Positions 11,737-38,564 are shown, counted from the stretch's first letter. The stretch: DNA of 64,000 nucleotides from Firmicutes bacterium CAG:24053_14 (GCA_001916715.1 MNSZ01000064.1:89097-153096); one strand, 5' to 3'. The notes: a model not told the origin generated them from the letters alone. Numbers and translations are program-made.

Positions 11737-12993
11737 ATGATCAAAGTAGCACAGTTTATGAAAAACCACGGCATGGATGCCGAGCGCATCGACCTTGCCG
11801 AATACACGAAAGCCTTTGCCGGCGCAATGCGCTCGGGGCTTGGCGCTTTTCAGAAGGAAATGCCAATGCTTCCGACGTATCTGTATTCCTCCGGCAAGCT
11901 CCAAAAGGGCGGCAGGGCCGTAGTCATAGACGCCGGAGGTACGAATTTCCGCACGGCCGTCGTGGACTTTGACGGAAAAAAGGCCGTCATCGAATCGCTC
12001 GACAAGCGCCACATGCCCGGAGCGGACGAGCCTGCGGAATGGAATGAGTTTATCTCCTGCGTTGCCGACTGCGTGCAGCCGCTGATGGGGCAGACCGCGG
12101 ATATAGGCTTCTGTTTTTCCTACCCCATCGAGATCACGCCCGAGTGCGACGGTAAGATACTAGGTTTGACAAAGCAGGTGGATATCAAAGGTGCTGCCGG
12201 CTCGTATCTCGGAGCGGCTCTGCGCACAGAGCTTGAAGCTCGCGGCGAGCACCCCGGCAGGATCGTCGTTTTGAACGACACTCCGGCTACGCTGCTCGCC
12301 GGTAAGGCGCTCGCCAAGGGCAGCTACGACGGCTATATCGGCCTCGTTGCCGGTACCGGCTGCAACACCTGCTGTGAGATCGAATGCGGCAGGATAGGCA
12401 AGCTCGATATGACCGGCGGCAGGAAAATGCTCGTTAACCTCGAAAGCGGCTCGTTTTCGGGTTTCGCGCGCGGCGACGCGGACCTCGCGATGGACGCCGA
12501 CCTGCCGGACACCGGCGAGTATGTCGCGGAAAAGATGATATCCGGCCGCTATCTCGGGCAGGTGTGCATGTACACGCTGAAAATGGCCGCTGCCGAGGGA
12601 CTTTTCTCCGAGCGCGCATCCGAGACGATCGAAAAAATGACCGAGGTCGTGACCCCGACTATCGACAAATGGGGCAGCGGACGCTTTCCGAAGGGCTTCG
12701 ACAGCGAGGATAGGGTCAATCTGGTTTACATAATCAACGAAATTTTCGAGCGCTCGGCCAGATGCATTGCAAGCATGCTCTGCGGCATACTTGAGGTCAC
12801 GGGAGCGGGCGAGGCACGCCCTGTGTGCATTGCGGTGGACGGCTCGCTGTATTCCGAGAGCAAGCTCCTGCGGCCCGAGCTTGAACGATTCATGGACGTG
12901 TACGCCGGAGAGATCATGGGCAGACGCTATGAGTTCGTGAATGCCGAAAATATGAGCCTTATCGGAACCGCCGCGGCGGTTTTGCTGAAATAA
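11737..12993 (+). CDS. Hexokinase-family sugar kinase
   Basis: IDAGGTNFR phosphate-1 motif and LNDTPATLLAG (hexokinase NDTVGTL-like). ATG at 11737 follows a GAGG RBS. Confidence 0.75.
   Translation: MIKVAQFMKNHGMDAERIDLAEYTKAFAGAMRSGLGAFQKEMPMLPTYLYSSGKLQKGGRAVVIDAGGTNFRTAVVDFDGKKAVIESLDKRHMPGADEPAEWNEFISCVADCVQPLMGQTADIGFCFSYPIEITPECDGKILGLTKQVDIKGAAGSYLGAALRTELEARGEHPGRIVVLNDTPATLLAGKALAKGSYDGYIGLVAGTGCNTCCEIECGRIGKLDMTGGRKMLVNLESGSFSGFARGDADLAMDADLPDTGEYVAEKMISGRYLGQVCMYTLKMAAAEGLFSERASETIEKMTEVVTPTIDKWGSGRFPKGFDSEDRVNLVYIINEIFERSARCIASMLCGILEVTGAGEARPVCIAVDGSLYSESKLLRPELERFMDVYAGEIMGRRYEFVNAENMSLIGTAAAVLLK
12724..12734 (-). repeat. dif XerD-arm-like word ATTATGTAAAC, site 1/10 (reverse orientation), inside the hexokinase CDS
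   Basis: The plus strand reads GTTTACATAAT and codes for LVYII. Confidence 0.9.
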
Positions 12994-12996
12994 GCT

Positions 12997-13959
12997 ATGA
13001 AACACGCATTTAGAAAAATCATACCGCTGCTTCTGGCGCTGTGTCTTGCCCTGTCGGGCTGCACCGCGCAGGAAGCGGAGAAAAAGGACAGCTCAAAGCT
13101 CCAGATAGTCTGCACGAATTTCCCGGCCTACGACTTTGCACGCGAGATGGCAGGGGACAGGGCGCAGATAAAGCTTCTCATAAAGCCCGGCGCGGAGGTG
13201 CACTCATACGAGCCTGCGCCAAAGGAGATCGTTGCGATACAGGAGAGTGACCTGTTTATCTGCAACGGCGGCGAGTCCGAGGCCTGGGTCGAGTCGCTCG
13301 TGTCCGACGATGTAAACGTTCTGCGCATGATGGACTGCGTTGAGACTCTTGCCGAAAGCAGCGAGGGCATATACGCTGCCGACCACGATCATGAGCACGA
13401 GGACGAGCACGACCATGACCACGAGGAAGAGGAGCTTGACGAGCATGTGTGGACAACGCCCGGCAACGCGGCGAAGATCTGCTATGCCCTGTGCGATAAG
13501 CTCTGCGAGCTTGACCCGGATAACGCAAACGAGTATATGCTCAATTACGAGGTCTACAACGCAAAGCTCATGGAGCTTGACATAGACATACGCACGACCG
13601 TCATGAACGGAGCGCGCAAAACGCTCATTTTTGCCGACAGATTTCCGATGCGCTACTTCACGCGCGAGTACGGCCTGACGTATTACGCGGCCTACCCCGG
13701 CTGCGCGTCGCAGACCGAGCCGTCGGCCAAGACGGTGGCGTTCCTCATCGACCATGTGCGCGAGGAGAACATACCGGCGGTGCTGTACATGGAGTTTTCA
13801 AACGAAAAGATGGCCGACGTCATCTGCGAGGATACCGGCTGCAAAAAGCTGCCGTTTTACTCGGCGCACAGCATCACCGCGCAGCAGTTTGAGGACGGGG
13901 TTACTTACCTTGACCTCATGCGCATGAATATAGAGACCCTGAAGGAGGCGCTTTACTGA
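12997..13959 (+). CDS. Zinc/metal ABC transporter substrate-binding lipoprotein (ZnuA/AdcA type)
   Basis: Lipobox LSGC and the acidic His-rich loop DHDHEHEDEHDHDHEEEE typical of zinc-specific cluster A-I binding proteins. Confidence 0.85.
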   Translation: MKHAFRKIIPLLLALCLALSGCTAQEAEKKDSSKLQIVCTNFPAYDFAREMAGDRAQIKLLIKPGAEVHSYEPAPKEIVAIQESDLFICNGGESEAWVESLVSDDVNVLRMMDCVETLAESSEGIYAADHDHEHEDEHDHDHEEEELDEHVWTTPGNAAKICYALCDKLCELDPDNANEYMLNYEVYNAKLMELDIDIRTTVMNGARKTLIFADRFPMRYFTREYGLTYYAAYPGCASQTEPSAKTVAFLIDHVREENIPAVLYMEFSNEKMADVICEDTGCKKLPFYSAHSITAQQFEDGVTYLDLMRMNIETLKEALY

Positions 13960-13960
13960 T

Positions 13961-14665: not shown

Positions 14666-15483
14666 TAGAGCTTATAAAAGAGATGTTCTCTTATCACTTC
14701 ATGGTAAGAGCCGTTGTCGTCGGCGTGCTCGTTTCGCTGTGCGCGGCGCTGCTTGGCGTTTCGCTCGTGCTCAAGCGCTATTCCATGATCGGCGACGGCC
14801 TGTCACACGTCGGCTTCGGCGCACTGGCCATCGCGGCAGCGGTGAATGTCGCGCCGTTGTACCTTGCCGTTCCTGTCGTTATCGCGGCGGCGTTCCTGCT
14901 GCTGAGGATAAATCAGAACAGCAAGATAAAGGGCGATGCGGCTATCGCGCTGATTTCCTCGTCGGCGCTGGCGATAGGCGTTGTGACCGTCTCGCTCACA
15001 ACGGGCATGAACACCGACGTTTCAAACTACATGTTCGGCAGCATCCTCTCGCTAAGCCATGCCGACGCGGTGCTGAGCATAGTGCTCTCCGTCGTCGTGC
15101 TTTTGATGTTCGTTCTGCTGTATCCGCGCATATTTGCCGTCACATTTGACGAGACCTTTGCGCGCGCAACGGGAACAAAGGCGCAGCTTATAAACAGCGT
15201 CATAGCCGTCCTCACCGCCGTCACGGTGGTCATCGGTATGCGCATGATGGGCGCGCTGCTCATATCGAGCCTGATAATTTTCCCGGCGCTGACGGCGATG
15301 CGTATCTGCCGCAGCTTTAAGGGTGTAGTTATTTGCTCGGCGGTCGTTTCCGTCGTGTGCTTTGTGATCGGAATGGCTGCATCTTATGCATTCGAGCTGC
15401 CGTCCGGCGCGGCGATAGTGATAGTCAATATAATCGCGTTTGCGGCATTTTCTTTTGCAGCTTTACTAAAAAAGAGGGCATAA
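14662..15483 (+). CDS. Metal ABC transporter permease (ZnuB type)
   Basis: Polytopic ABC-3 family membrane protein that overlaps the ATPase gene by 4 nt. Confidence 0.85.
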   Translation: MIELIKEMFSYHFMVRAVVVGVLVSLCAALLGVSLVLKRYSMIGDGLSHVGFGALAIAAAVNVAPLYLAVPVVIAAAFLLLRINQNSKIKGDAAIALISSSALAIGVVTVSLTTGMNTDVSNYMFGSILSLSHADAVLSIVLSVVVLLMFVLLYPRIFAVTFDETFARATGTKAQLINSVIAVLTAVTVVIGMRMMGALLISSLIIFPALTAMRICRSFKGVVICSAVVSVVCFVIGMAASYAFELPSGAAIVIVNIIAFAAFSFAALLKKRA

Positions 15484-15643
15484 AACTGTACAAAGCACAT
15501 AAAAGCCGGCTCCGAACAACAAATTCGGGGTCGATTTTTTATGCAAAAATTCATGAAAACGGTGAATATTCGCGCAATAATGAATATTATTCATTAAATA
15601 CGGCTGTTTGACGAAAAATTACGAATATTTTTTCAAAAAAGTG

Positions 15644-15672
15644 TTGACAACAGTGAATAAACATGCTAATAT
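15644..15672 (+). promoter_or_regulatory. Sigma-A promoter of the amino-acid ABC operon
   Basis: TTGACA, a 17-nt spacer, then TAATAT. Confidence 0.55.
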
Positions 15673-15732
15673 AGGCAACGTCGTAAGGAACGACACAAAA
15701 AACAGTTTAAAATTTTTTGAGAGGTATAGAAA

Positions 15733-16581
15733 ATGAAAAAGTTTATCGCACTTATGCTCGCGATGGTCATGGTGTTCGCACTGTGCGCCTGCGGCAACGA
15801 TACAGGCAATAAGGATAAAGACGGCGACCAGGCAAGCACAAAGCTGAAGATCCTTGACTCCGAATATGTCACCGAGGATTACGCTATCGGCATTGCAAAG
15901 GAAAACACCGCACTGCTTGATAAGGTCAATGCAGCTCTCAAGGAGCTCAAGGACGACGGCACTCTCAAGACTGTCACCGATTACTTCATCGCAGGCACCG
16001 GCACTCTCCCCGAGGTTCAGAAGAATGTTGCGGCCGACGCAGAGGAGCTCGTTATGGCTACCAACGCTACATTCCCTCCGTATGAGTCCGTTGACGGCGA
16101 CAAGATCGTCGGTATCGACCCCACTGTAGCAGGCCTTATTGCCGATAAGCTCGGCATGAAGCTCGTCATTAACGATATGGAGTTTGACGCAATCATTCCC
16201 GCACTCACCTCCGGCAAGGCCGACATCGCAATGGCCGGCATGACCGTTACCGAGGAGCGTCTCCAGAGCATCAACTTCTCCGACAGCTATGCTACCGGCA
16301 TTCAGGTAATGATCGTTAAGGAAGACTCCGACATCTCCAGTGCTGACGACATCGTTGCAAAGATCGAGAACGGCGAGAACATCCAGATCGGATGCCAGAT
16401 CGTAACTACCGGTTACATTTATGCTTCCGACACAATTGAGAACGGCGGCTTCGGCGAGGATCATGTTCAGGCATTCCCCAAGGGTGCTGACGCTATTGCA
16501 GCTCTCACCAGCGGCAAGATCGATTGCGTTATCATCGACAATGAGCCGGCAAAGGCATTTGTTGAAGCAAACAACGGCTGA
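15733..16581 (+). CDS. Polar amino-acid ABC transporter substrate-binding lipoprotein
   Basis: Lipobox LCACG and a family 3 solute-binding fold (ATNATFPPYE, GKADIAMAGMT). Confidence 0.85.
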   Translation: MKKFIALMLAMVMVFALCACGNDTGNKDKDGDQASTKLKILDSEYVTEDYAIGIAKENTALLDKVNAALKELKDDGTLKTVTDYFIAGTGTLPEVQKNVAADAEELVMATNATFPPYESVDGDKIVGIDPTVAGLIADKLGMKLVINDMEFDAIIPALTSGKADIAMAGMTVTEERLQSINFSDSYATGIQVMIVKEDSDISSADDIVAKIENGENIQIGCQIVTTGYIYASDTIENGGFGEDHVQAFPKGADAIAALTSGKIDCVIIDNEPAKAFVEANNG

Positions 16582-16583
16582 TA

Positions 16584-16628
16584 GCTAACCTGACAGGCGG
16601 CAGGGATTCGACTCCCGTCAGCTTAAAC
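16584..16628. repeat. Short hairpin element sharing 19/20 nt with the right arm of the 10-kb inverted repeat
   Basis: TTCGACTCCCGTCAGCTTAA (16607-16626) compared with TTCGACTCTCGTCAGCTTAA (10250-10269). Locally, CTGACAGG pairs with CCCGTCAG. Confidence 0.6.
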
Positions 16629-16637
16629 AATTTGATA

Positions 16638-16671
16638 AATGAGGCTCCGTGCGGTTATGGAGCCTCATTTT
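16638..16671 (+). terminator. Intrinsic terminator or attenuator between the SBP and permease genes
   Basis: Stem AAATGAGGCTCC/GGAGCCTCATTT followed by T. Confidence 0.75.
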
Positions 16672-16699
16672 GAGCGTTTGAGAATTAGGAGGTAGATTT

Positions 16700-17428
16700 T
16701 TGGAAGCGTGGATGGCAGATATCAAAAGTCAATTCATATTAAATTTTATAGAAAAAGACCGTTGGCGGCTTCTGGTTGACGGTCTCGGCAACACACTCAA
16801 AATAACTGCCGTTGCCTGCCTTATCGGCATATGCATCGGTGTCATCATAGCCATAGTGCGGTCAACATGGGATAAAAACCACCTCACGATGCGACCGAGC
16901 ATCGGCAAGACCCTGCTCGGCATAGTTAACGGCATATGCAAGGTGTACCTGACGGTTATCCGCGGCACACCTGTGGTCGTTCAGCTGATGATCATATACT
17001 ATATAATATTTGCATCCTCCCGAAACAGCCTTGCGATAGCGATGCTCGCATTCGGAATAAACTCCGGTGCGTATGTCGCCGAGATAGTACGCGGCGGCAT
17101 AATGTCAATCGACGAGGGACAGTTCGAGGCGGGACGCTCGCTCGGCTTTAACTATGTCCGCACAATGCAGTACATAATAATACCGCAGGTTTTCAAAAAT
17201 GTTCTGCCGACGCTCGCAAACGAGTTCATCGTCCTGCTCAAGGAGACCTCCGTTGCCGGCTATGTAGCGATCCGTGATCTCACCAAGGCGGGCGATATTA
17301 TTCGCGGTGCAACCTATTCGCCCTTCCTGCCGCTTATCGTCGTTGCACTCATATACCTCATAATGGTCGTGTTCTTTACATGGCTCGTCGGCAGGCTGGA
17401 AAGGAGGCTGCGCAGCAGTGACCACTGA
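16700..17428 (+). CDS. Polar amino-acid ABC transporter permease
   Basis: His/Glu/Gln/Arg permease family with an EAA-like loop ([11 protein letters not shown]). TTG start 7 nt after AGGAGG. Confidence 0.85.
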
Positions 17429-18161
17429 TGTTCTCATAAAAGTAGATGATCTCCAGAAGCAGTTTAAGGGCGGCAAGATCAAAGCGCTCGACGGTGTGAG
17501 CACCGACATACATAAGGGCGAGGTAGTTGTTGTCATCGGCCCCTCCGGCTCGGGTAAGTCAACCTTCCTCAGATGCCTCAATCTCCTTGAGGTGCCCACC
17601 GGCGGCACGATAACCTTTGACGGCGTTGATATAACTGATCCGAGCTGCAATATAAATCTCCACCGTCAGAAGATGGGTATGGTTTTCCAGCACTTCAACC
17701 TCTTTCCGCATATGACACTGCTCAGAAATATGACCCTTGCGCCGATGAAGCTTCTCGGAAAAAGCAAGGAGGACGCGGAAGCCAAGGCTATGGAGCTTCT
17801 CGCACGCGTAGGCCTTGCCGACCGCGCCAATGCGTATCCCAGCCAGCTCTCCGGCGGCCAGAAACAGCGTATCGCCATCGTGCGCGCGCTGTGCATGGAG
17901 CCTGACGTTATGCTCTTTGACGAGCCGACGAGTGCACTCGACCCCGAAATGGTCGGCGAGGTTCTCGACGTTATGAAGGAGCTTGCCCACGAGGGCATGA
18001 CGATGGTCGTCGTTACCCACGAGATGGGCTTTGCCCGTGAGGTCGGCAACCGCGTGCTGTTCATGGCTGACGGTAAGCTCGTTGAAGAAGGTACGCCCGA
18101 GGATATATTTGAGCATCCTCAGAGCGAGCGCTTGCAGGACTTCCTGTCCAAGGTACTTTGA
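17418..18161 (+). CDS. Polar amino-acid ABC transporter ATP-binding protein (GlnQ type)
   Basis: Walker [10 protein letters not shown], signature LSGGQKQR and Walker [11 protein letters not shown]. Confidence 0.9.
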
Positions 18162-18162
18162 T

Positions 18163-18724
18163 ATGAATAAAACAGCACTCAAAAATGCCGCCATAGATTC
18201 AATCGAGTCTATGGCGGACTTCTACGAAAAAAACAGCAGATGAGATATGGGAGAACCCCGAGCTTTCGCTAAAGGAGTACAGGGCCGCGGCGCTTTACTG
18301 CCGCATCCTGCGCGAGCACGGCTTCAATGTGCGCGAAAAGCTCTGCGGCTCGTTTGGCAGCGGCAGACCGTATATCGGTATCCTCGGCGAATTTGACGCG
18401 CTCTCCGGCCTTTCGCAGAAGGCCGGATCGTGCGAAAAAGACCCCGTCGTTCAGGACGTGAGCTGGCTCACGCCTGCGGCGCAGATCGAAACTGCAACAT
18501 GGCCCAGCGGCATGCCCCTGCACACATGGCAAACGGTTGCCTGCGGCAAAAGCAGCATAGCGTACAAGGGCATGCTTTGTGCAGGCAAGGTGATGGCGGC
18601 TTCCGCAATAGATCTCATAGAGGATCCTGAGCTGCTGAAAGCAGCACGCGAGGAGTTTAAGCGCCGTGCAAAGGGCGGATACACCTGCCCTATAGAGCCG
18701 GAGACCGTGCCGACAGCGCTCTGA
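18163..18724 (+). pseudogene. Remnant of an M20-family amidohydrolase (AbgB/aminobenzoyl-glutamate utilisation type)
   Basis: The N-terminal piece MNKTALKNAAIDSIESMADFYEK stops at 18243. The sequence continues in another frame (DEIWENPELSLKEYRAAALYCRILREHGFNVREKLCG...GILGEFDALSGLSQKAG). It then jumps directly to the C-terminal end (VSWLTPAAQ...CPIEPETVP). The whole is under 190 aa, versus about 480 aa for intact members. Confidence 0.7.
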
Positions 18725-18818
18725 TGGGCATAATTTTTCTCAGTTAACAAAATTGTGCTTTCATTTTCCGCGCGTATGTGCTATACTTCGGGTGTTTGTG
18801 CACATTGGAGGCATTGGT

Positions 18819-19442
18819 ATGAAAAAAAAGCTTCTCTTCGCCCTGGTGCTGCTGCTTATGGCGGCTGCACTGCCGATTTCGGCAAGCGCCGAGCTGGGGA
18901 TAAAGCCCGTAGCCGACCCGTGGGACGATCCGAATAATCTCATAAAAGACGGGGCAGTTTATACGGCGTATAACGAAGATGGATATATTGTCGCGTGGGA
19001 AACGCCGGAATGTGATGTAAACGGCAAGTATATGCTCATCAAAAACGACACCGAGCTGAAGGTGGAATATCGCGTTAGCTATATGGGCGATGTGCCTTGG
19101 GGGCATGTCACAGTGAAAAACGACGGCGACGAGGATTTTGCCGGCTGGGTGCTTATGAGCGATTTGCTCGGAGCCGACGGTAAGCCGGCTGCGGAAGCTC
19201 CCGTCAAGATCCCCGACCACCCGATGATAGCGGATCCTACGCCCGAACCGAGCGAGGAGCCGGAAAATCCCGAGGCAACGCCTACGCCCACTGTCCCGGT
19301 TCGCCCGGAGCAGGCGATAAACATAAGCAACACATATAATTCCGCGATAGTGTACACATCCGTTGCGATCGCGGCAGTGGCGATCGCCTTTGCGATCCTC
19401 GTCCTTGTAAAGCATAAAGCGCTGAATAAAAAGGGCGAATAA
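18819..19442 (+). CDS. Exported protein with a Pro/Glu-rich linker and a C-terminal TM anchor (hypothetical)
   Basis: Signal peptide MKKKLLFALVLLLMAAALPISASA after a GGAGG RBS. PEPSEEPENPEATPTPTVP linker and a C-terminal hydrophobic helix. Confidence 0.6.
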   Translation: MKKKLLFALVLLLMAAALPISASAELGIKPVADPWDDPNNLIKDGAVYTAYNEDGYIVAWETPECDVNGKYMLIKNDTELKVEYRVSYMGDVPWGHVTVKNDGDEDFAGWVLMSDLLGADGKPAAEAPVKIPDHPMIADPTPEPSEEPENPEATPTPTVPVRPEQAINISNTYNSAIVYTSVAIAAVAIAFAILVLVKHKALNKKGE

Positions 19443-19485
19443 TACGAACGATTTAGGACATAATAATATCTGCAAGCCGAAAACC

Positions 19486-19512
19486 TTAGCACTCGAACAA
19501 AAAGAGTGCTAA
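19486..19512. promoter_or_regulatory. CIRCE element (HrcA operator)
   Basis: A perfect TTAGCACTC-N9-GAGTGCTAA lies about 130 nt upstream of hsp20. Confidence 0.9.
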
Positions 19513-19642
19513 GGTTTACAATTTATTCACAAAAAGCACTATATTTGTTCATAATTATATGGTACTTTATATACAACAAGAAACGAGAGTTATAAATTCA
19601 AAACCGAATTTAAACTCTCCTCAAAAATTGGAGGTATTGATT

Positions 19643-20074
19643 ATGTTTGAACTTACACCTTTTGGCTATCGCAGAGTAGCATCTTATAATCCTTTCCGTG
19701 AGCTGGAGGAAATGAGCCACAGCTTCTGGAACGACGCAGATGTCAGCGGTTTCCGCACCGACATCAAGAAAGTCGATGGCAACTATGTCCTCGAGGCTGA
19801 ACTGCCCGGCTTCAAGAAGGAAGATATCAACATTGATATCGATAAGGATTGCCTGACCATTTCCGCGGAGCGCAAGTCCGAGGAAAAGGAAGACAAGGGC
19901 GACAACGGTTTTGTACGCCGCGAGCGTTATTACGGATCGTTCAGCCGCAGCTTCAATATTAAAGGTATTGATACTGACGGTATCACCGCTGAGTATAATG
20001 ACGGCGTCCTGACTCTGACTATGCCGGAGAAGACCCCCGAGGTTCCTGCGGCAAGACGTCTTGAGATCAAATAA
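19643..20074 (+). CDS. Hsp20/alpha-crystallin family small heat-shock protein
   Basis: Alpha-crystallin domain (DIKKVDGNYVLEAELPGFKKEDINIDI...GVLTLTMPK-like). Start MFELTPFG after GGAGG. Confidence 0.9.
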   Translation: MFELTPFGYRRVASYNPFRELEEMSHSFWNDADVSGFRTDIKKVDGNYVLEAELPGFKKEDINIDIDKDCLTISAERKSEEKEDKGDNGFVRRERYYGSFSRSFNIKGIDTDGITAEYNDGVLTLTMPEKTPEVPAARRLEIK

Positions 20075-20134
20075 TCCCAAACAAATCAGATCAGATAGTT
20101 TTCTTTCATCCTCTCTCTTCCCCATAAAACAAAA

Positions 20135-20162
20135 ACCCGATGCCTTTGCATCGGGTTTTTTG
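20135..20162 (+). terminator. Intrinsic terminator after hsp20
   Basis: Stem ACCCGATGC/GCATCGGGT followed by a T-run. Confidence 0.8.
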
Positions 20163-20236
20163 TTGCATATATGTCCATTGTATGGTAAAGTCATAGACAT
20201 AGGAGACCACAATGTACGAAAAATAGGAGGAAAGAG

Positions 20237-29871: not shown

Positions 29872-29987
29872 ATATTCTTTCCTGTCCTTGTAAATTGTTT
29901 TTGTTAGAGTATATTAGGGACAAATGCTTGAATATGCCGCCGGAATGAAATATAATAATGTCATTACTTTTGAAAGGAATAAAAACT

Positions 29988-30680
29988 ATGGATATAAAAG
30001 AACTGCTGGCCTACTGCGATCATACCCTGCTGCGCGTTGACTGCACCGAGGCAGAGATAAGAAAGCTCTGCGATCAGGCGATAAAATACGGCTGCGCGTC
30101 GGTATGCATTCCGCCCTGCCACGTTCCCGGCGCAAAGCGCTATGTCGGCGATAAAATGAAGATCTGCACCGTCATCGGCTTCCCGAACGGATATATGTCC
30201 ACCGCTGCAAAGGCCTTTGAGGCTGCCGACGCCGTAGCAAACGGAGCCGACGAGATCGACATGGTCATAAACCTCTCCATGGTCAAGGACGGCTGCTGGG
30301 AGGATGTCGCCGAGGATATAAAGGCAGTGCGCCGCTCGTGCCTCGGCAAGGTGCTCAAGGTCATAATCGAGTGCTGCCTGCTCACAGATGAAGAGAAAAT
30401 GCGCATGTGCACGATAGTTTCCGAGTGCGGCGCGGATTTCATAAAAACCTCCACCGGCTTCAGCAAAGGCGGAGCCACACGTCACGATGTCGAGCTGCTG
30501 CGCCGCTGCAGCCCGGATTCGCTTCAGGTAAAGGCCGCCGGCGGCATAGCCTCGCTTGAGGATGCCGAGGACTTTATCTCTCTCGGCGCAACGCGCCTGG
30601 GCACGAGCCGCATAGTGAAGCTCGCAATGGAACTCGAGCGCGAGAGTGCCGGCACAGATACCGGCAGCGAGAATTATTGA
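29988..30680 (+). CDS. deoC: Deoxyribose-phosphate aldolase
   Basis: CDHTLL, VCIPP, KVIIE and the Schiff-base motif FIKTSTGF. Confidence 0.9.
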   Translation: MDIKELLAYCDHTLLRVDCTEAEIRKLCDQAIKYGCASVCIPPCHVPGAKRYVGDKMKICTVIGFPNGYMSTAAKAFEAADAVANGADEIDMVINLSMVKDGCWEDVAEDIKAVRRSCLGKVLKVIIECCLLTDEEKMRMCTIVSECGADFIKTSTGFSKGGATRHDVELLRRCSPDSLQVKAAGGIASLEDAEDFISLGATRLGTSRIVKLAMELERESAGTDTGSENY

Positions 30681-30697
30681 GAAAGGGCGGTGCGCCC

Positions 30698-30880
30698 ATG
30701 CGTAAACCGGGCAAGGTGCTCAGCATAATAGGACTTATCCTGTCGGCCGCGCTGCTGGTCGTCGGGTCATATTTCATCCTGCCGCGTTCACAGAATTGGG
30801 CAAGCATATGGAGCGTGCTCACAGGCAGCGCCGCGGCGTACTTTGCCTATTATGCGTTCCACAAAAGAGATAAAGATTGA
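30698..30880 (+). CDS. Small two-TM membrane protein (hypothetical)
   Basis: MRKPGKVLSIIGLILSAALLVVGSYFIL... Only the ORF and its hydrophobicity support this call. Confidence 0.35.
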   Translation: MRKPGKVLSIIGLILSAALLVVGSYFILPRSQNWASIWSVLTGSAAAYFAYYAFHKRDKD

Positions 30881-30929
30881 ATTATTCACGGCATTCACGG
30901 CGGAGTGCCCCTCCGCCGTGAAAAAATCC

Positions 30930-30958
30930 TTGACAATAGTGAAAAGTGCTGATATATT
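30930..30958 (+). promoter_or_regulatory. Sigma-A promoter of the infC-rpmI-rplT operon
   Basis: TTGACA, a 17-nt spacer, then TATATT. Confidence 0.7.
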
Positions 30959-30964
30959 AATAGG

Positions 30965-31090
30965 GCTGAAAACAAAGTAGGTACGGCATCCCCGACCTCA
31001 CCGAGCCGCAAAAGGCGCGCTTCGGTCAATAGCATCGCCCCGAGCGGGGCTTTGTTTGCGCGGATGCTGTCAGGCATCCGTTTTTTGCAT
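30965..31090 (+). ncRNA. L20-leader-type ribosomal-protein autoregulatory leader with a terminator hairpin (31061-31086)
   Basis: Structured 5' UTR upstream of infC, in the position of the Firmicute L20 leader. It ends in stem CGGATGC/GCATCCG followed by TTTTTT. Confidence 0.6.
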
Positions 31091-31116
31091 TATGGAGGTG
31101 TTTTACAATCGCAAGC

Positions 31117-31704
31117 GTGAATCATGAGATCAATGAAGAGATCCTCGACAAGGAAATACGCGTTATAGGTGACGACGGCGAGCAGCTTGGAATAATGTCC
31201 GCGGAAGCCGCCATGAAAATTGCGGAGGAAAAGGAGCTTGACCTGGTCAAGATATCCCCGATGGCAAAGCCCCCCGTCTGCAAGATCATGGACTACGGCA
31301 AATACCGTTTTGAGCAGTCCAAGCGTGAAAAGGAAGCCAAGAAGAATCAGCGCGTCATGGAGGTCAAGGAGATCCGCATGTCTCCCGGCATCGGCGAGAA
31401 CGACCTGAACACAAAGCTCAAGAGCGCGCTCAAGTTCCTTGCCGACGGCGACAGAGTCAAGGTCTCGATCCGCTTCCGCGGCAGAGAAATGGCGCACACT
31501 CATTTGGGTGAGGTCATCCTGCGCGACTTTGCAGCAAAGTGCGAAGAGGTTGCAAACCTTGATAAGGCGCCCAAGCTTGAAGGACGCAATATGTCCATGT
31601 TCCTGTCCCCGAAGTCTGCTGCGGCAGTCAAGAAGGCACAGAAAGAAGCCGCCAAGAAGCAGGCAGAGGCTGAGGCCGCTGCCAAGGCGGAGGAAAACAA
31701 CTGA
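31117..31704 (+). CDS. infC: Translation initiation factor IF-3 (the true start is probably the in-frame ATC at 31108)
   Basis: [21 protein letters not shown]..., the [17 protein letters not shown] linker and a C-terminal domain. There is an extra Lys/Ala/Glu-rich C-terminal tail. The SD GGAGG at 31094-31098 is spaced correctly for 31108 but not for the GTG at 31117. Confidence 0.9.
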
Positions 31705-31760
31705 TTGGTTATTACAGACAGAATTCTGATAATAGCAGCATACGGAAGGAGAAAATAACT

Positions 31761-31958
31761 ATGCCTAAACTTAAGACCCATAGCGGTGCTAAGAAGAGAT
31801 TCAATCTCACCAAGAGCGGTAAAGTAAAGCGCGCACATGCGTTCAAGAGCCATATCCTCACAAAGAAGGACACCAAGCGCTGCCGTCGTCTGCGTTCCGG
31901 CGCAATTGCCGACGTGACCAACGAGGCAACCATCAAAAAGATGATCCCTTACAAATAA
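31761..31958 (+). CDS. rpmI: 50S ribosomal protein L35
   Basis: [14 protein letters not shown].. Confidence 0.95.
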
Positions 31959-31994
31959 TTAAGGGCTGACTGTTACTGATAGGAGGAATTACAA

Positions 31995-32348
31995 ATGGCA
32001 AGAGTTAAGGGCGCAATGATGACCCGTAAACATAGAAACAAGATCCTTGGTCTGGCAAAGGGCTACTGGGGCAACAAGTCCCGTCATTATAAGATGGCTC
32101 AGGAGCAGATGATGAAGTCCGGCCGCTACGCATATGTCGGCCGCAAGCAGAAAAAGCGCGACTTCCGTCAGCTCTGGATCACCCGTATCAGCGCAGCATG
32201 CAAGGCAAACGGCATGAACTACTCCACCTTCATGCACGGCCTGAAGCTCGCCGGCATCGATATGAACCGCAAGATGCTCTCCGAGACCGCTATCCACGAT
32301 CCCGCCGCATTCACCGCACTGTGCGAGAAGGCAAAGGCAGCAAAGTAA
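31995..32348 (+). CDS. rplT: 50S ribosomal protein L20
   Basis: [26 protein letters not shown].. Confidence 0.95.
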
Positions 32349-32420
32349 TTTAACATTACAGGCAATTAACAGCCGCAGCAGTTTGATCTGCTACGGCTGT
32401 GCGCTTATTTAAGTAAAAGT

Positions 32421-32451
32421 AAAGGCGTGACCGATAAAGTCACGCCTTTTT
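32421..32451. terminator. Bidirectional terminator between rplT and the HTH-S24 gene
   Basis: Stem AAAGGCGTGAC/GTCACGCCTTT. Confidence 0.8.
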
Positions 32452-32454
32452 GAG

Positions 32455-33153
32455 TTATGCCGCGAGGACCTTGCCGAGCACGCGCAGCGGCAGAGCGGGG
32501 GAGATGCGTATATCCGGGTATGCCGGATTCAGCGAATGCAGCGCAAGATAGCCGTCGCCGGCGACGAGCTGCTTTAGATACGCGCAGCCGTCGTAGAGGA
32601 AAATGCCGATCTCGCCGGTCATGAGGCTGTGCTGCTGGCTGACCCAAACGGTCTGCCCGTCGTGAAAGCGCGGCTCCATACTGTCGCCTGCTACGCGCAC
32701 GCCGAAGTTGGCTCCGTCCGGGACCTCGGGGCCGACCTCGGTCATATCATAGTCCTCGCTGTCAAGAAACTGCCCGGTGCCTGCCGAGACGGCCAGCGAA
32801 TACAGCGGCAGCATGCGCGTTTTGACAGGCTCCGGCTGCAAACCGTATCGCCCACTGTCGCGCAGAAGCTCGATATAGTCAAGCGCTTTTTTCCTGCCGA
32901 CGGTGTTCAGGCCGGCGAGCAGCCCGTCGCGGCTTCCGCCGTCGAATGTGCCTGAAATATCGTCTATCTCAAGCGCGCGGCACAGAGCGAGAAACTGCCT
33001 GGCATTCGGAAGAGTGCTCCCCGTTTCCCACTTTGATATTGCCTGATTTGTGACCTCTATGCCGTCGATAGCAAGAGCCGAGGCAAGCTCGGCTTGCGAA
33101 AAGCCAAGCTCACGGCGCTTTGAATTTAAAATTTCGCCAATACTGTTGCTCAT
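32455..33153 (-). CDS. XRE-type HTH plus S24 peptidase (LexA/UmuD-like self-cleaving repressor)
   Basis: HTH FSQAELASALAIDGIEVTNQAISKWETG. The S24 domain has AGDSMEP (catalytic Ser) and a later Lys. It is divergent from a Y-family polymerase gene. Confidence 0.8.
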   Translation of the reverse strand: MSNSIGEILNSKRRELGFSQAELASALAIDGIEVTNQAISKWETGSTLPNARQFLALCRALEIDDISGTFDGGSRDGLLAGLNTVGRKKALDYIELLRDSGRYGLQPEPVKTRMLPLYSLAVSAGTGQFLDSEDYDMTEVGPEVPDGANFGVRVAGDSMEPRFHDGQTVWVSQQHSLMTGEIGIFLYDGCAYLKQLVAGDGYLALHSLNPAYPDIRISPALPLRVLGKVLAA

Positions 33154-33241
33154 TGCGTGTCTCCTTTTGTGCTTTGACTACAGTATATAGTATATCTCCG
33201 CAAAAGGCAAGTAAAATATCCGATAAAGATAAAAATCCCTG

Positions 33242-33270
33242 TTTACATATCCGAAAACGCGATATATAAT
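33242..33270 (+). promoter_or_regulatory. Candidate promoter of the Y-family polymerase gene
   Basis: TTTACA, a 17-nt spacer, then TATAAT. Confidence 0.5.
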
Positions 33271-33301
33271 AGCTTCACTATCTTAAACGGAGATGCGGCA
33301 T

Positions 33302-34519
33302 ATGGACAGAGTGATACTTCATTCGGATATAAATTCGTGCTACGCGAGCGTCGAGCGGCTGTATAAGCCCGAGCTTGAGGGAAAGCCCTTTGCGGTTTGC
33401 GGCTCGCAGGAAATGCGCCACGGCATAGTGCTTGCAAAGGATGAAACGGCAAAACGCGCCGGGGTCAAGACCGGCATGGCCATATGGCAGGCGCGGCAGC
33501 TGTGCCCCGAGCTTGAAGTCGTTGAGCCGCACTTTGAGCGATACACGAAATATTCCGCGATGGTGCGCGAGATATATGCCGAGTATACAGACCTGTGCGA
33601 GCCGTTCGGCATAGACGAGAGCTGGCTTGATATAACAAACTGCCTTGCCTGTCCAGACCCCGTGAAAACGGCCGACGAGATACGCCGTCGTGTGCGCGCG
33701 GAAACCGGGCTTACAGTTAGCGTGGGCGTTTCGTGGAACAAGGTGCTCGCAAAGCTCGGCTCGGACTATAAAAAACCTGACGCTGTGACTGTTATAGACA
33801 GGGAACACTTTAAAAGCATGGTCTGGGGGCTTCCTGCTTCGGATATGCTCATGGTCGGGCGCAGTACCCGGCGCGAGCTTGCGCGCATGGGCATACAGAC
33901 GATAGGAGAGATAGCGCGCACAGATCCGGAGCTTCTGCGCGCACGATTCGGCAAGGGCGGTATCGCACTGTGGCGGTATGCGAACGGTATGGACGATTCG
34001 CGTGTGCGCAGGGCAGGGGAGGAAGAGCCGCCGCAGTCTGTAGGCAACAGCGTCACCCTCGCGCGCAACATCGAAAACGAGTGTCAGGCGCGTCAAACTA
34101 TGCTGCTGCTTGCCGAAAGCGTCGCGTCGCGCCTGCGCAGGCAAAATCTGCGCTGCCGCACGGTCGAGGTCGCGCTGCGCTCAGAGCAGCTTCAGTGGAA
34201 AACGCACCGGATGCGCCTGAGATACGCAACGGATATTACCTCCGAGCTTGCAGAGCACGGCATGGAGCTTCTGCGCCAAAGCCACAGCTTCTCGTCGCCG
34301 CTGCACAGTATGGGCCTGCGCGGCCTTGAGCTTGTGCATGCCGACGAGGATGAGCAAATGGACATGTTTGCAGATTATGTAAACTTAAATAAGCAGCGCA
34401 GCATCGATGCCGCCGTGGATAAGATCCGCAGCAAATACGGCTCCGGCAGTATCCGGCGCGCATGCCTCCTCGGTGAGCCGACGGCGGAAAACATCGCCTT
34501 TTGCTCGCTGCCTGATTGA
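33302..34519 (+). CDS. Y-family DNA polymerase (DinB/UmuC-like)
   Basis: ILHSDINSCYASVE (catalytic DxxxFYA-type motif), SVGVSWNKVLAKL and a little-finger domain. ATG at 33302 lies 9 nt after GGAG. Confidence 0.85.
   Translation: MDRVILHSDINSCYASVERLYKPELEGKPFAVCGSQEMRHGIVLAKDETAKRAGVKTGMAIWQARQLCPELEVVEPHFERYTKYSAMVREIYAEYTDLCEPFGIDESWLDITNCLACPDPVKTADEIRRRVRAETGLTVSVGVSWNKVLAKLGSDYKKPDAVTVIDREHFKSMVWGLPASDMLMVGRSTRRELARMGIQTIGEIARTDPELLRARFGKGGIALWRYANGMDDSRVRRAGEEEPPQSVGNSVTLARNIENECQARQTMLLLAESVASRLRRQNLRCRTVEVALRSEQLQWKTHRMRLRYATDITSELAEHGMELLRQSHSFSSPLHSMGLRGLELVHADEDEQMDMFADYVNLNKQRSIDAAVDKIRSKYGSGSIRRACLLGEPTAENIAFCSLPD
34374..34384 (+). repeat. ATTATGTAAAC site 8/10, inside the Y-family polymerase CDS
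   Basis: Reads GAT TAT GTA AAC TTA AAT (DYVNLN). It is identical to site 2 over 18 nt. Confidence 0.9.
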
Positions 34520-34571
34520 AAAACCATCAGCACCGCTTTAGTTCAGCCTAAAGCGGTGCTGCTGGTTGAGC

Positions 34572-35498
34572 TTATTTATCGTTTTCGCTGCGGAATACCG
34601 ACGAGATAATATATCTCGGACGCCCTTGACATTCGGTGTAGATCTTCGCGATATACAGCCCTATAATTCCGAGACTCATCATTATTATACTGAATCCGAA
34701 CAATAAAATTATAATGACCGTTGTAAAACCGCTCAGGGCATAACCTGCGAATTTTTGATAGAGAGCGATCACTCCCAAGACTATGGAAACGATGAACATG
34801 ACATAGCCGAGGATGGTCACTATCTGCATGGGGAAGCTGGAAAACGATGTAATGTTTGTTATGGCGTATTTGAAAAGAGCCTTTGTGCTCCATTTTGACT
34901 GACCGGCAGCACGTTCCCGAACCGAGTACGAAACGGTGGCCTTTTTAAAGCCGACCCAGAATGAGAGCGCACGGAAAAATACATTGCGCTCCTTCATTTG
35001 GTTTAGGGTGTCAACTACCTTGCGATCGAGAAGCTTGAAGTCGGATGAATCGGCCATGTCAAAACCGGTCATTTTGCTGATGATACCGTAAAATGTGTTA
35101 GCCATGAAGCGATGCGCAGCACTTTCACTGCCACGATCGTCCTTGACGCCCTCAACTACCTCATAGCCCTCCTGCCAAAGTCTGTACATTTCGACTATCT
35201 TCTCCGGTGGGTGCTGAAGATCACAGTCAATAATAACGCAGCAATCTCCGGAGGCTTTCTCAAGACCGGCGAACATTGCGGCCTCCTTGCCGAAATTTCG
35301 GCTGAAATTCACTCCGACAACATTTTCGTTCTTTTCGGCTGCATGGCATATCCGCGCCCATGTGCTGTCCTTCGAGCCGTCGTTTATAAATAGCAGCTCA
35401 TACGGGATGTTCTCCTGCTGCATAAGCTGAGAGATCGCCTGTTCGGCTAATGGGACCATTTGCTCTTCGTTGTATGCCGGAACAATAATTGACAGCAT
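34572..35498 (-). CDS. GT2 polyprenol-phosphate glycosyltransferase (GtrB/ArnC/CsbB-like)
   Basis: LSIIVPAYNEE, the DCDLQHPP motif (DxD) and two C-terminal TM helices. Confidence 0.85.
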   Translation of the reverse strand: MLSIIVPAYNEEQMVPLAEQAISQLMQQENIPYELLFINDGSKDSTWARICHAAEKNENVVGVNFSRNFGKEAAMFAGLEKASGDCCVIIDCDLQHPPEKIVEMYRLWQEGYEVVEGVKDDRGSESAAHRFMANTFYGIISKMTGFDMADSSDFKLLDRKVVDTLNQMKERNVFFRALSFWVGFKKATVSYSVRERAAGQSKWSTKALFKYAITNITSFSSFPMQIVTILGYVMFIVSIVLGVIALYQKFAGYALSGFTTVIIILLFGFSIIMMSLGIIGLYIAKIYTECQGRPRYIISSVFRSENDK

Positions 35499-35517
35499 AT
35501 TTTACCTCCGTACGGTA

Positions 35518-37095
35518 TCAGTCTGAAAACTTAACGACAATGACACCGTTTATCGTTTTTATAGAACCGGCGTTTGGATAACACGGCATTTCTTCAAATT
35601 CATCGGTCTGCTTTATCTGCTCTTCGGTGTCTGCATCAACATAGTCATACCGCGAAGCAAGAACATTGTACAAAAGATGCTTTCGCGTGTATATGTTTGC
35701 GACGGAATTCCCGGTGAACACACCGGTCATGCCGGGGGTGGCAGGAACATTGCTGTCCATATTGATCTTGCCGATGAGCGCTACGGGCGTTGAGGATGAA
35801 AAATCGTCCTGTAATTCGATCTTTGCAGTGAGCTTTGTCATAAACGCATAAACATTCTTATAGGTCATATCCATGTAGAAATATGCGCGATTATCGATCA
35901 GAACAAATTCGTAGGCACAGGCGAGCTGAGTCAAAAGCAGAGCCAATGTCAGCGCGAGCGACACAAAGCCGGAACGGGATTTAAGGATCCCACTGAAGCA
36001 TATCCTCTCCGAAATAACAGCCGGGAAAATGAGCGGCAGCAGCATAGGATAAACCATAACAAGGTGAACCGTGAATTCACCGGCCATAACATAAACAAGA
36101 TCGCAGGCAAGTGGGATAAGTGCGACTAATATGATAATCTCAATAATAGCGGAAAAGCTTTTATAAAGCCTGCGCTGAAAAATGATGGCAAGCGCCGCAA
36201 CGGCCGAAAAGAGGAAAGCTGCCGCTGCGATATACTTGAAAAAGCTGTGGAATACAGCAGAGCGATAGAAATAAAAGAAATTTTTGTATGCTGCGGATAT
36301 GCGATCTATAAGCTGGCTGAATGTGACTATACCCATCGAGCTGATGCCCTGATAATCAATAAGCTCAACGTTGTTGACCTTCAGGCATATCCGAAGAATA
36401 ACGAAGTACAGGATCATGCCGAAGGCAAGGCCGGCTATGTATTTCAACCCGACTGTAATAAATTCCTTAAAGCTCGAAAAACGTGAATCTATTACATCAA
36501 CAAGCATGGAAAAAACCAGCAGCGCGGCGGTAAGCGGAAAATATGACTGATATATACCCATCGACAGGGCAACAGCCACTCCGCCGAGGGCGATGGCCGG
36601 CCACTTCTTCCGCTGAATGAGGTGTGCAGATACAACCGACAGCAGCAGTGCGAGCAAGTATGAGCCAGAGCAGAACATATAAGCGTAGGTTGAAGTGACG
36701 GTGGGGAAAGAGACAATGCAGGCGGATATGAGCAAAGCCGGCAAAAAGCGGCTCACGCGCAGTATTCGCATTATCAAAACGGCGGCAGCTGCAAAGTACA
36801 ACGCACCGAGCACTGCGTTCAGCCACGGACTGCTGGTAAATCCGCTGATGCCCTGCGTAAAATACAGAAGCCACCGGCCCGACGAAAGAAGATTGGTGCC
36901 GTGGTAAAGATAGGCTATGTCGTCATGGTTTATGAATTTGTTCGTAAACATATACATATGAACCATGAAGGTCAGCACAAAGGTGCTTGAAAAAACGAAT
37001 ATGTCAAGTTTTTTTATGCTGCGCCTGCACAAGCCGGCGATGCAATCAACAGTGTTTCTGTTTAAACAGCTCTGCTCCGTTTTTCTCTCGTCCAA
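35518..37095 (-). CDS. Polytopic membrane glycosyltransferase (GtrC/Glucos_trans_II-like), partner of the GT2 enzyme
   Basis: 525 aa with about 12 TM helices, located directly upstream of the GtrB-like gene. Family assignment rests on architecture and context. Confidence 0.55.
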   Translation of the reverse strand: MDERKTEQSCLNRNTVDCIAGLCRRSIKKLDIFVFSSTFVLTFMVHMYMFTNKFINHDDIAYLYHGTNLLSSGRWLLYFTQGISGFTSSPWLNAVLGALYFAAAAVLIMRILRVSRFLPALLISACIVSFPTVTSTYAYMFCSGSYLLALLLSVVSAHLIQRKKWPAIALGGVAVALSMGIYQSYFPLTAALLVFSMLVDVIDSRFSSFKEFITVGLKYIAGLAFGMILYFVILRICLKVNNVELIDYQGISSMGIVTFSQLIDRISAAYKNFFYFYRSAVFHSFFKYIAAAAFLFSAVAALAIIFQRRLYKSFSAIIEIIILVALIPLACDLVYVMAGEFTVHLVMVYPMLLPLIFPAVISERICFSGILKSRSGFVSLALTLALLLTQLACAYEFVLIDNRAYFYMDMTYKNVYAFMTKLTAKIELQDDFSSSTPVALIGKINMDSNVPATPGMTGVFTGNSVANIYTRKHLLYNVLASRYDYVDADTEEQIKQTDEFEEMPCYPNAGSIKTINGVIVVKFSD

Positions 37096-37259
37096 AAGCT
37101 AAACACCTCTCTTTAAGATATTACGAAAAAATCAATGACACAATGTTACTAAAATTATAACCAGCGCAGAAGCCGTGTCAAGTATTTTCACGATTGACAA
37201 TACCTGCATCCGAAACCGAGCATATGTCATTGCGAGCCTGCATCATGGTAAAAAACATA

Positions 37260-37270
37260 ATTATGTAAAC
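37260..37270 (+). repeat. ATTATGTAAAC site 9/10, intergenic
   Basis: AAAAACATAATTATGTAAACC. The word forms part of the 12-bp palindrome ACATAATTATGT. Confidence 0.9.
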
Positions 37271-37397
37271 CTTCATTTCATTTTCGATCGTGTATTTGTG
37301 CAGAAGGCGCGAGGCCTTAAAATTTTTTGCTTTATACCTCATTGAAAGCTAAGCGGCAAAATGTTATTATAAGCAAAAAATATCGGAGTGTATTGAT

Positions 37398-38564
37398 ATG
37401 ACCGAAAAGCTTTATTATATCGACAGCCACATGAAAGCCTTTACGGCGACGGTTACCTCATGCGAGAAAAACGGCGACCGATTTGAGGTCACGCTCGACC
37501 GCACGGCGTTTTTTCCCGAGGGCGGCGGTCAGCTCGGCGACAGCGGAGTGATCGGCGGCGTTCGAGTATTTGATACGCATGAGAAAAACGGAGAGATCAA
37601 ACATTATGTAAACCAAGCTCTGGAGACAGGCAAGACCTACGACTGCGCAATTGACTGGGAAACTCGCTTTCGCAGAATGCAAAATCATTCCGGCGAGCAT
37701 ATTGTGTCGGGGCTTGTGCATAAGAAATATGGGTACAACAATGTCGGCTTCCACATGGGCAGCGACGTTGTGACGATAGATTTTGACGGCGAGCTTTCGT
37801 GGGAGCAGCTTCTTGAGATCGAGCGCGATGCAAACCGCGCCGTCGCGGCAAACTACAAGGTCACGGCGACGCTTCCTGCGGAGGATGTGCTGAAAACTCT
37901 CGAGTACCGCAGCAAGCTTGAGCTGACGGAAAACGTGCGCATCGTCGAGATAGAAAACACCGACATCTGTGCCTGCTGTGCGCCGCATGTCAGCTCAACC
38001 GCCGAGGTCGGCACCGTGCGCATACTCACAGCCGAGCGCCGCAGACGCGGCGGAGACGGCGTGCGCATAACGATGCTTTGCGGCCTGGACGCATTCGACC
38101 ATGAGGTCATAACAGATTCGAACAACGCGGAGATATCCATGCTCCTGTCGGCAAAGCGAACAGAGACAGCCGCTGCCGTGCGCAGACTTATAAGCGAGAA
38201 CGAAAAGCTCAAGGCGCGTGCAGCGGAGCTCAGCCGTGAGCTCGCGCGGATAAAAGCCGAGGCTATAGAGCCGACGGAGGGGAACATCTGCCTGTTCGAT
38301 AATGTCCTGGACGAGCCGGCGCTCAGGACGCTCGTGAACGAAGCTGTGAAAAAATGCTCCGGCCTTGCGGCGGTATTCTCAGGGGACGACGAAACAGGCT
38401 ACAGATACATTATCGGAAGCTGCAATGCGGATCTCAGGAAAGCGGCAAAAAGTATAAATTCCGGCATCTCGGGACGGGGCGGAGGCAGCCCGGAAATGAT
38501 ACAGGGTAGCTGCACAGCGTGTTCATTAACTATTCAAAATTTTTTGACTAACTTCACGGTTTAG
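37398..38564 (+). CDS. alaX: Alanyl-tRNA editing protein AlaX-L (AlaRS editing domain plus DHHA1-like domain)
   Basis: FFPEGGGQLGD and the zinc motifs HSGEHIVSG and CCAPHV. Confidence 0.8.
   Translation: MTEKLYYIDSHMKAFTATVTSCEKNGDRFEVTLDRTAFFPEGGGQLGDSGVIGGVRVFDTHEKNGEIKHYVNQALETGKTYDCAIDWETRFRRMQNHSGEHIVSGLVHKKYGYNNVGFHMGSDVVTIDFDGELSWEQLLEIERDANRAVAANYKVTATLPAEDVLKTLEYRSKLELTENVRIVEIENTDICACCAPHVSSTAEVGTVRILTAERRRRGGDGVRITMLCGLDAFDHEVITDSNNAEISMLLSAKRTETAAAVRRLISENEKLKARAAELSRELARIKAEAIEPTEGNICLFDNVLDEPALRTLVNEAVKKCSGLAAVFSGDDETGYRYIIGSCNADLRKAAKSINSGISGRGGGSPEMIQGSCTACSLTIQNFLTNFTV
37603..37613 (+). repeat. ATTATGTAAAC site 10/10, inside alaX
   Basis: Reads CAT TAT GTA AAC CAA (HYVNQ). 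Confidence 0.9.

Follow-up and report, generated by a model that had tools for sequence, protein, structure and literature searches.

What signal is written again and again through unrelated housekeeping genes as one short DNA word, and which protein might read it? The question is raised by a 64,000-nucleotide stretch from Firmicutes bacterium CAG:24053_14 (GCA_001916715.1; MNSZ01000064.1:89097-153096), referred to here as the window, in which the 10-mer TTATGTAAAC recurs within and between genes of unrelated function. The host belongs to the Oscillospiraceae, has not been cultured, and is very prevalent in the human gut; NCBI labels the matching proteins "Firmicutes bacterium CAG:24053_14" and "Oscillospiraceae bacterium," and its nearest species representatives are metagenome-assembled genomes (MAGs) such as UBA7273 (96% amino acid identity in glgB). 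According to an original prediction made from the window alone, the copies are half-sites identical to the XerD-binding arm of dif and may lie near a point where replication forks converge. Here we describe an array of 12 such sites, most of them within 15 kb, which match the XerD arm of dif and are under strong purifying selection at the DNA level, and we consider whether they may be an unusually dense form of the stand-alone XerD-binding sites (XDS) at which complexes of the structural maintenance of chromosomes (SMC) type get unloaded.

Extent and conservation of the array

TTATGTAAAC is the most frequent 10-mer of the window, ahead of GC-rich coding words, and its 10 exact matches, a count that agrees with the original one, compare with 0.05 expected (dinucleotide-preserving shuffles; maximum, 1). 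The base preceding the word is A in 8 of the 10 copies and the base following it is C or T in all 10, as had been claimed; the coordinates first given were right within one or two bases (the interval 23050-23060 should be 23051-23061). When tolerated variants are admitted, the motif TTATGT[A/T/C]AAC identifies 12 sites in the window, the 2 added sites being copies of TTATGTCAAC (24180, minus strand; 29263, plus strand). Eight sites lie on the plus strand and four on the minus strand, interleaved and with no strand polarity. Genes were assigned by the Pfam domains of called genes, and these assignments agree with the proposed ones (hexokinase, GH13 with two exact sites, glgA with two, glgB, Y-family polymerase, and AlaX-like). 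The sites are listed below; all are exact copies of TTATGTAAAC except the two marked as TTATGTCAAC.

23052-37613: core array, 11 sites matching TTATGT[A/T/C]AAC
12724-12733, minus strand: outlying TTATGTAAAC within the hexokinase gene (11725-12993)
23052-23061, plus strand: overlaps the stop codon of the GH13 gene (23052-25340, which also contains the next two sites); variant TTATGTTAAC in most relatives
23302-23311, plus strand: GH13 gene; coding strand reads GLHN
24180-24189, minus strand: GH13 gene, DYVNL; variant TTATGTCAAC in the window strain
25924-25933, minus strand: glgA (25328-26806), KLCKL
26564-26573, minus strand: glgA, FYVNL; FYIDL with other codons in the outgroup
26929-26938, plus strand: 3' part of glgB (26775-28712), GLHN; highly variable codons on either side
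29218-29227, plus strand: intergenic, directly after the stop codon of a glyoxalase-family gene
29263-29272, plus strand: variant TTATGTCAAC, across the SSB stop codon
34375-34384, plus strand: IMS/Y-family polymerase gene (33293-34519), DYVNL; kept in at least six related species
37261-37270, plus strand: intergenic, between the divergent Glucos_trans_II and alaX-like genes
37604-37613, plus strand: AlaX-like gene (37398-38564), HYVNQ; kept in about 10 related species

Eleven of the 12 sites fall within 14.6 kb (23052-37613), or about 1 per 1.3 kb, and 6 of the 12 are located within the glgB-glgA-GH13 operon. The clustering described originally is thus borne out, with nine exact copies in 23.05-37.6 kb and none after 37613 in the window. 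When the view was stretched by 10 kb on each side via conspecific contigs (total span, -9.5 to 74 kb), the left extension contained no sites and the right extension contained one (at ~70.4 kb), which, together with the site at 12724, makes only two in the remaining 69 kb of the span. In related loci, with the glgB start taken as zero, the array extends from approximately -9 kb to +5.65 kb, where it ends sharply at the GH13 stop codon.

The relatives comprised the 10 kb on either side of glgB from 80 species, all on MAG contigs (≤487 kb; loci labeled L###). In 38 of these species, the word occupies the same glgB, glgA, and GH13 positions, with glgB proteins that are 67 to 96% identical and operon DNA that is 70 to 94% identical to those of the window. 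The DNA of this ingroup (651 kb) contains 226 exact copies of TTATGTAAAC, 46 of TTATGTTAAC, and 16 of TTATGTCAAC, and no other one-mismatch variant exceeds 7 copies, whereas 610 kb of outgroup DNA contains 6 exact copies; a search of the outgroup glg loci for a substitute over-represented word found none. In an operon alignment of 39 sequences (the window and the 38 related species; 5,792 ten-column windows), the site at 25924 is the sole fully invariant ten-column window, and those at 26564 and 24180 are among the 50 best conserved. Within a 31-species subclade carrying all six operon sites, five of them rank between 1 and 53 (the site at 23302 is 4th of the 5,792), and the GH13 stop-codon site ranks 1461 because most relatives carry TTATGTTAAC there. 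At 24180, most relatives and the conspecific contig L010 have TTATGTAAAC. Conservation also extends beyond the operon, as every related locus in which the polymerase or alaX gene is in view has kept the site there. The outlying hexokinase site at 12724 is absent from L012 and L064, the two related loci that match the window's hexokinase region in tblastx, and at the intergenic site at 37261 the 17 bases upstream are not conserved even in a 94%-identical relative (L011). Ten conspecific contigs differ from one another at 2.6% of positions, and the nine words examined contain a single variable position, namely, the wobble base of the site at 24180.

The original prediction held that the constraint acts on the DNA word rather than on the proteins and proposed alignment of orthologs from close relatives; in these, the word is indeed kept at synonymous positions in the glgA, glgB, polymerase, and alaX genes. 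Third-codon positions in the operon words are 0.84 to 1.00 conserved, against a background mean of 0.64 to 0.67, and just 4 to 6% of background third positions are invariant. Neighboring codons and amino acids vary freely around the fixed word, most clearly at 26929 and 23302, and species just outside the clade have FYIDL in place of FYVNL and ACKA in place of LCKL. The words also impose rare codons, with TTA making up 2.1% of Leu codons (in line with its earlier description as uncommon), GTA 12% of Val codons, and TGT 12% of Cys codons. Because synonymous sites are conserved, the words are read in three frames and on both strands, rare codons are used, and outgroup amino acids differ, selection is on the DNA, and the words are under strong DNA-level purifying selection across a family-level clade. 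New lineage-specific sites are found in the same region (e.g., extra sites in L034, L040, L044, and L056), and with such gains selection appears to favor the density of sites in the region in addition to their individual positions.

Several side observations concern sites of this kind. A separate clade of Oscillospiraceae MAGs, most of them labeled "Lapin" (61 to 63% GC), is without the glg-operon sites and has a conserved pair of XerD arms 426 bp apart, near the limit of the sequence analyzed, approximately 10 kb downstream of where glgB starts (L069, 20358/20784; L071, 20915/21341; L072, 14012/14438; L067, 10326). Other clades may therefore have arrays of their own nearby. In the window, ATATGTAAAC at 33241-33250 (minus strand) departs from the word at base 1 only; it is found where a LexA-like repressor gene (HTH_3 plus Peptidase_S24) and the Y-family polymerase gene share a divergent promoter region, and L011, L012, L016, and L064 have kept both it and its flanks. 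This copy may belong to the array in degenerate form or may serve this SOS-like cassette as an operator. At 29218-29272, the direct half-sites TTATGTAAACT and TTATGTCAACT frame a perfect hairpin with a 12-bp stem, AAGGAGTCTGCC-gcgta-GGCAGACTCCTT, which separates the glyoxalase-family gene from the SSB gene convergent with it and resembles a terminator acting in both directions.

Match to the XerD arm of dif

To what does the conserved word correspond? A logo based on 300 sites grouped into 44 independent site families reads R-TTATGT-[A 0.76/T 0.18/C 0.06]-AAC-Y, and the flanks beyond it are uninformative. We compared this motif with published and predicted dif sites. The XerD arm is ATTATGTAAACT in the dif sites of B. 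subtilis, Staphylococcus aureus, and Desulfotomaculum (class Clostridia), ATTATGTTAACT in that of B. anthracis, ATTATGTCAAGT in that of Alicyclobacillus, and ATTATGTAAACC in that of Syntrophus, and the right side of the B. subtilis dif is TATATA-TTATGTAAACT. The array motif, (A)TTATGT[A/T/C]AAC(T/C), thus equals the right arm of dif plus the last base of its central region. The seventh base (A, T, or C) is the single variable position both in real XerD arms and in the array, and the preceding purine and following pyrimidine agree as well. The equation of the word with the XerD arm, first made from the window alone, is therefore upheld by a logo that reproduces the published arms, including their variable seventh base.

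No XerC arm was found at the 6-bp spacing at any site of the window when the 17 bases upstream of every TTATGTNAA were scored (best, 5 of 11 positions), and the best dif position weight matrix (PWM) score was 16, in agreement with the earlier description of the copies as half-sites. The array sites are, judged by their sequence, half-sites of the XerD-arm type. We considered whether they might be full dif sites and rejected this, as there are twelve copies and none has an XerC arm.

To place the array among other loci, metagenome contigs were scanned for canonical dif, which yielded 120 dif-like loci (757 kb). Of these, 106 contain dif only, 13 contain one extra half-site, and 1 contains two. 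There are 11 extra exact half-sites in the set, against 1.9 for composition-matched control words (~6-fold), and most lie <1 kb from dif. This enrichment indicates that candidate lone XerD half-sites are a recurrent natural feature near dif and suggests that their occurrence next to dif is widespread outside Bacillus as well. None of the 120 loci comes near 12 sites in 15 kb, and the density that was originally called unusual is unusual by this measure too, since 106 loci lack any extra half-site and two is the highest number seen. Unrelated environmental contigs with one or two extra half-sites 0.2 to 1 kb from a canonical dif include L134 (3706-4780), L192, L172, L168, L118, L159, L211, and L108.

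Readings of the array

What might such a set of half-sites do? We favor, with somewhat better than even confidence, a reading in which the array is a group of stand-alone XerD sites that forms a pad for capturing and unloading Smc-ScpAB. XerD, or whichever Xer-family protein of the clade reads the XerD arm of dif, would bind each site as a monomer, with the 12-mer RTTATGTWAACY as its target. Without XerC arms there would be neither synapse nor strand exchange, such that, with no partner arm, the sites would not support recombination. The twelve sites would instead make ~15 kb of the chromosome a landing pad densely occupied by XerD, which would capture and unload Smc-ScpAB traveling down the chromosome arms, by analogy with the XDS of B. 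subtilis and S. aureus. The close spacing would make it likelier for a complex that advances in large steps to encounter XerD on the DNA, so that density would offset the step size of the loop extruder; an argument of this kind is made for XDS and matS in PMC10945525. PMC11840125, PMC10945525, and PMC11894783 describe XerD in B. subtilis as unloading Smc-ScpAB at dif-like XDS in the terminus region, independently of XerC, and PMC11840125 reports that an artificial XDS array blocks SMC translocation. From the motif identity, half-site nature, clustering, and selection described above, we infer that XerD may bind the array, that SMC complexes may be unloaded there, and that the terminus may be near.

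Several results weigh against this reading. Searches with two dif PWMs detected no dif-like 28-mer between -9.5 and 74 kb (best score, 16, versus 32 to 45 for real dif sites), and no sequence within 10 kb of glgB in the related species was accepted as dif (best score, 27, against the same 32 to 45). Third-codon-position (GC3/AT3) skew was analyzed in 76 genes by a regression with gene-strand and replication terms; the GC3-skew replication term was +0.009 on the left of the array (confidence interval, -0.03 to 0.05) and +0.070 on the right (0.04 to 0.105). Forks converging at the array would need a change of sign, which the term does not show, and convergence there is thus not supported. The cumulative GC skew of the window has no maximum at the array. 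In the window and its 10-kb flanks, no xerC, xerD, smc, or ftsK gene was found among the Pfam domains of called genes. The XDS of B. subtilis number fewer than ten and are spread over the terminus region, and the present array is far denser. Finally, the location of half of the sites in one operon leaves room for a locus-specific role. The terminus argument of the original prediction is consequently not sustained by the dif search, the GC3 term, or the cumulative skew; the convergent ribosomal-protein operons, which had been offered as a sign of fork convergence, are not corroborated, since neither GC3 nor cumulative skew flips.

The most dif-like sequence, TTTKCGTATAA-N6-TTATGTAAACT (PWM scores up to 27; L014, 1435-1461; L015, 2130-2156; L017, 2200-2226), lies inside a 351-amino-acid open reading frame (ORF) with no Pfam match, and a second half-site is found 310 bp away in the same ORF. 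Another such 28-mer, GAAGACCGTAA-TATATA-TTATGTTAACC, occurs in L028 to L034 and L049 within a gene for an apparently hydrophobic, probably membrane, protein. Both thus fall within genes, and codon wobble is reflected in the variation of their left arms, for which reason neither was counted as dif; the first could be a coding-embedded dif or a chance match. In L028 (~2943-2989), L029 (~4934-4980), and L030 (~5319-5365), facing half-sites stand 10 bp apart as TTATGTAAAC-N10-GTTAACATAA, the opposite of the dif layout, again inside the gene for this protein; one of the facing half-sites is preceded by GAAGACCGTAA-TATATA, and this 28-mer is kept in six species while its flanks diverge. Words resembling SpoIIIE recognition sequences (SRS) or FtsK-orienting polar sequences (KOPS), and strand-switching k-mers in general, show no flip at the array. 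One apparently strand-switching heptamer, CGGCGTC, was rejected as a candidate, with 18 matches in the window versus 14.9 expected (i.e., not enriched); its excess in the extended sequence is in the right-hand flank and may stem from repetitive sequence there.

The absence of dif and of terminus signals nearby is shared ground for two other explanations. One holds that a different protein of the clade reads the 12-mer (nucleoid associated, similar to a replication terminator, or regulating the glycogen locus) and that the match to the XerD arm is coincidental. The array is clade specific and missing from outgroup glg loci, 6 of its 12 sites are in the glgB-glgA-GH13 operon, and it ends exactly at the 3' end of that operon, all of which would suit such a protein. 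A chance match of a strict 9-position motif with the same wobble and the same flanking purine and pyrimidine is very improbable, however, and the sites in the Y-family polymerase gene, in alaX, at the SSB stop codon, and in intergenic DNA are conserved too, so the signal is regional and not operon specific. Moreover, eight plus-strand and four minus-strand sites in interleaved orientations form no polar fork trap, and intragenic sites on both strands are unlike an operator layout. Glycogen-operon operators in particular were rejected, given that the sites are within the glgB, glgA, and GH13 coding regions and in the dinB-like, alaX-like, and SSB genes, and not in the promoter region. We regard the different-protein explanation as rather unlikely. 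The other explanation, which we hold to be quite unlikely, accepts binding by XerD or the Xer protein of the clade and assigns it another function, such as a stop or positioning pad for FtsK or SpoIIIE, a domain anchor or boundary, or titration of XerD. It draws on the same XerD-arm identity as the SMC-unloading reading, the missing terminus signals would fit a role that is not tied to the exact point of fork convergence, and FtsK translocation is reported to stop at XerCD-dif. Against it, we know of no precedent for half-site arrays as a translocase stop, boundary, or titration device, and the window gives no pointer to such a role (e.g., no ftsK or spoIIIE).

Two further proposals are very improbable, to a similar degree. 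Copies in both orientations and mobile-element insertions in the region in some strains (L002, L003, and L091) might suggest crossover sites of a site-specific recombinase (programmed inversion or deletion) or targets of Xer-using mobile elements; yet each site is only an 11- to 12-bp half-site with no second arm, gene order through the operon is the same in the ten conspecific contigs and the 38 related species, none of which shows an inversion from one copy to another, glgA, glgB, and GH13 would be disrupted by such inversions, and the mobile elements observed, which encode large serine recombinases, have their insertion points elsewhere than at the words. The occurrence of both orientations within one operon transcript would likewise allow an RNA-level signal (UUAUGUAAAC/GUUUACAUAA pairing in the glg mRNA), which was considered together with a genome-wide word of the uptake, packaging, Chi, or KOPS type. 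An RNA-level signal is at odds with the presence of sites between genes and, on either strand, in genes with transcripts of their own. Genome-wide words (the DNA uptake sequences DUS and USS, Chi, and KOPS/SRS) are ruled out by the fall in density from 11 sites in 14.6 kb to 2 in 69 kb, and the array lacks the strand polarity expected of Chi and KOPS; the uptake or packaging signal that the original prediction had entertained is discarded on the same density.

Returning to the SMC-unloading reading, we tentatively extend it: a dense XerD pad (~12 half-sites per 15 kb) laid over housekeeping genes and not next to dif could possibly be a new element of chromosome architecture, in which a recombinase serves purely as a DNA-bound roadblock. 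Its role would then be that of an SMC-unloading site, a domain boundary, or a translocase stop.

Neighborhood, implications, and known systems

The neighborhood of the array is an insertion-prone region. In some conspecific strains, insertions are present near it (L003, ~1-4060 and 14868-21479; L091, 11625-20846; L102; and L002, 16748-18229) and consist of mobilizable elements that encode relaxases, large serine recombinases, and a type I restriction function, in addition to an insertion sequence (DDE_Tnp_1). One insertion replaces the polymerase side, one follows the flavin mononucleotide (FMN)-dehydrogenase gene, and one follows a branched-chain ATP-binding cassette (ABC) transporter, at ~64.6 kb. 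An SLH-domain gene (46252-47346) contains a 180-bp tandem repeat in 2.5 copies (46879-47333), and a second SLH-domain gene contains a run of the hexamer CTACAC (20994-21024), with repeat-level similarity between the two genes. Rfam and tRNA scans of the window detected only four tRNAs, which are unrelated to the array and form a minus-strand cluster at 7458-7821 (Cys-GCA, Gly-GCC, Phe-GAA, and Val-TAC).

XDS of Bacillus subtilis and Staphylococcus aureus were reportedly described by Karaboja et al. in 2021 (Mol Cell 81:756), as papers citing that work relate. To our knowledge, XerD has been shown to act as an SMC unloader only in these two species. If the favored reading is true, the array extends XerD-dependent SMC unloading to never-cultured Clostridia and would be a natural high-density counterpart of the XDS array that was earlier built artificially. 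It would also mean that a chromosome-organizing signal can override coding constraints, as the word is invariant at synonymous sites even though the surrounding DNA is only ~70 to 82% identical, and its cost includes codons making up 2 to 12% of their families as well as amino acid changes. The result is a precise 12-bp motif and a 15-kb target region. Should the array mark the terminus, it would be a simple locator of that region in fragmented MAGs; should it act as a roadblock, it could serve as a sequence marker of a chromosomal landmark in MAGs.

How does the array compare with known systems? It shares with dif the right arm and one spacer base, which are identical to the array motif; dif, however, is a 28-bp site with an XerC arm and a 6-bp center that occurs once per chromosome, whereas the array has 12 copies, lacks an XerC arm and a conserved center, and is mostly intragenic. 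The clusters of parS sites bound by ParB and the RefZ motifs of Bacillus resemble it as chromosome-positioning elements that are often intragenic and conserved in position across a genus, and they differ from it in being palindromic, origin proximal, and bound by other proteins. The matS sites of Escherichia coli, through which MatP keeps an SMC complex (MukBEF) out of a region, are also clustered in multiple copies and read by one protein, with an effect that, according to PMC10945525, grows with site number and density. Unlike the array, matS is a 13-bp palindrome with 23 sites in ~800 kb, is bound by MatP and not by a recombinase, and is unrelated in lineage and motif. The closest likeness is to XDS, which also have an XerD arm but no working XerC arm, are present more than once, and play no part in recombination. 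The array departs from them in having 12 sites in ~15 kb that are mostly embedded in coding sequence and kept in position across ~39 uncultured Oscillospiraceae species, and in showing no terminus signature and no dif for at least 33 kb in either direction. On the features of its sequence, the array is best filed as an unusually dense, coding-embedded, putative variant of XDS in a lineage without described XDS.

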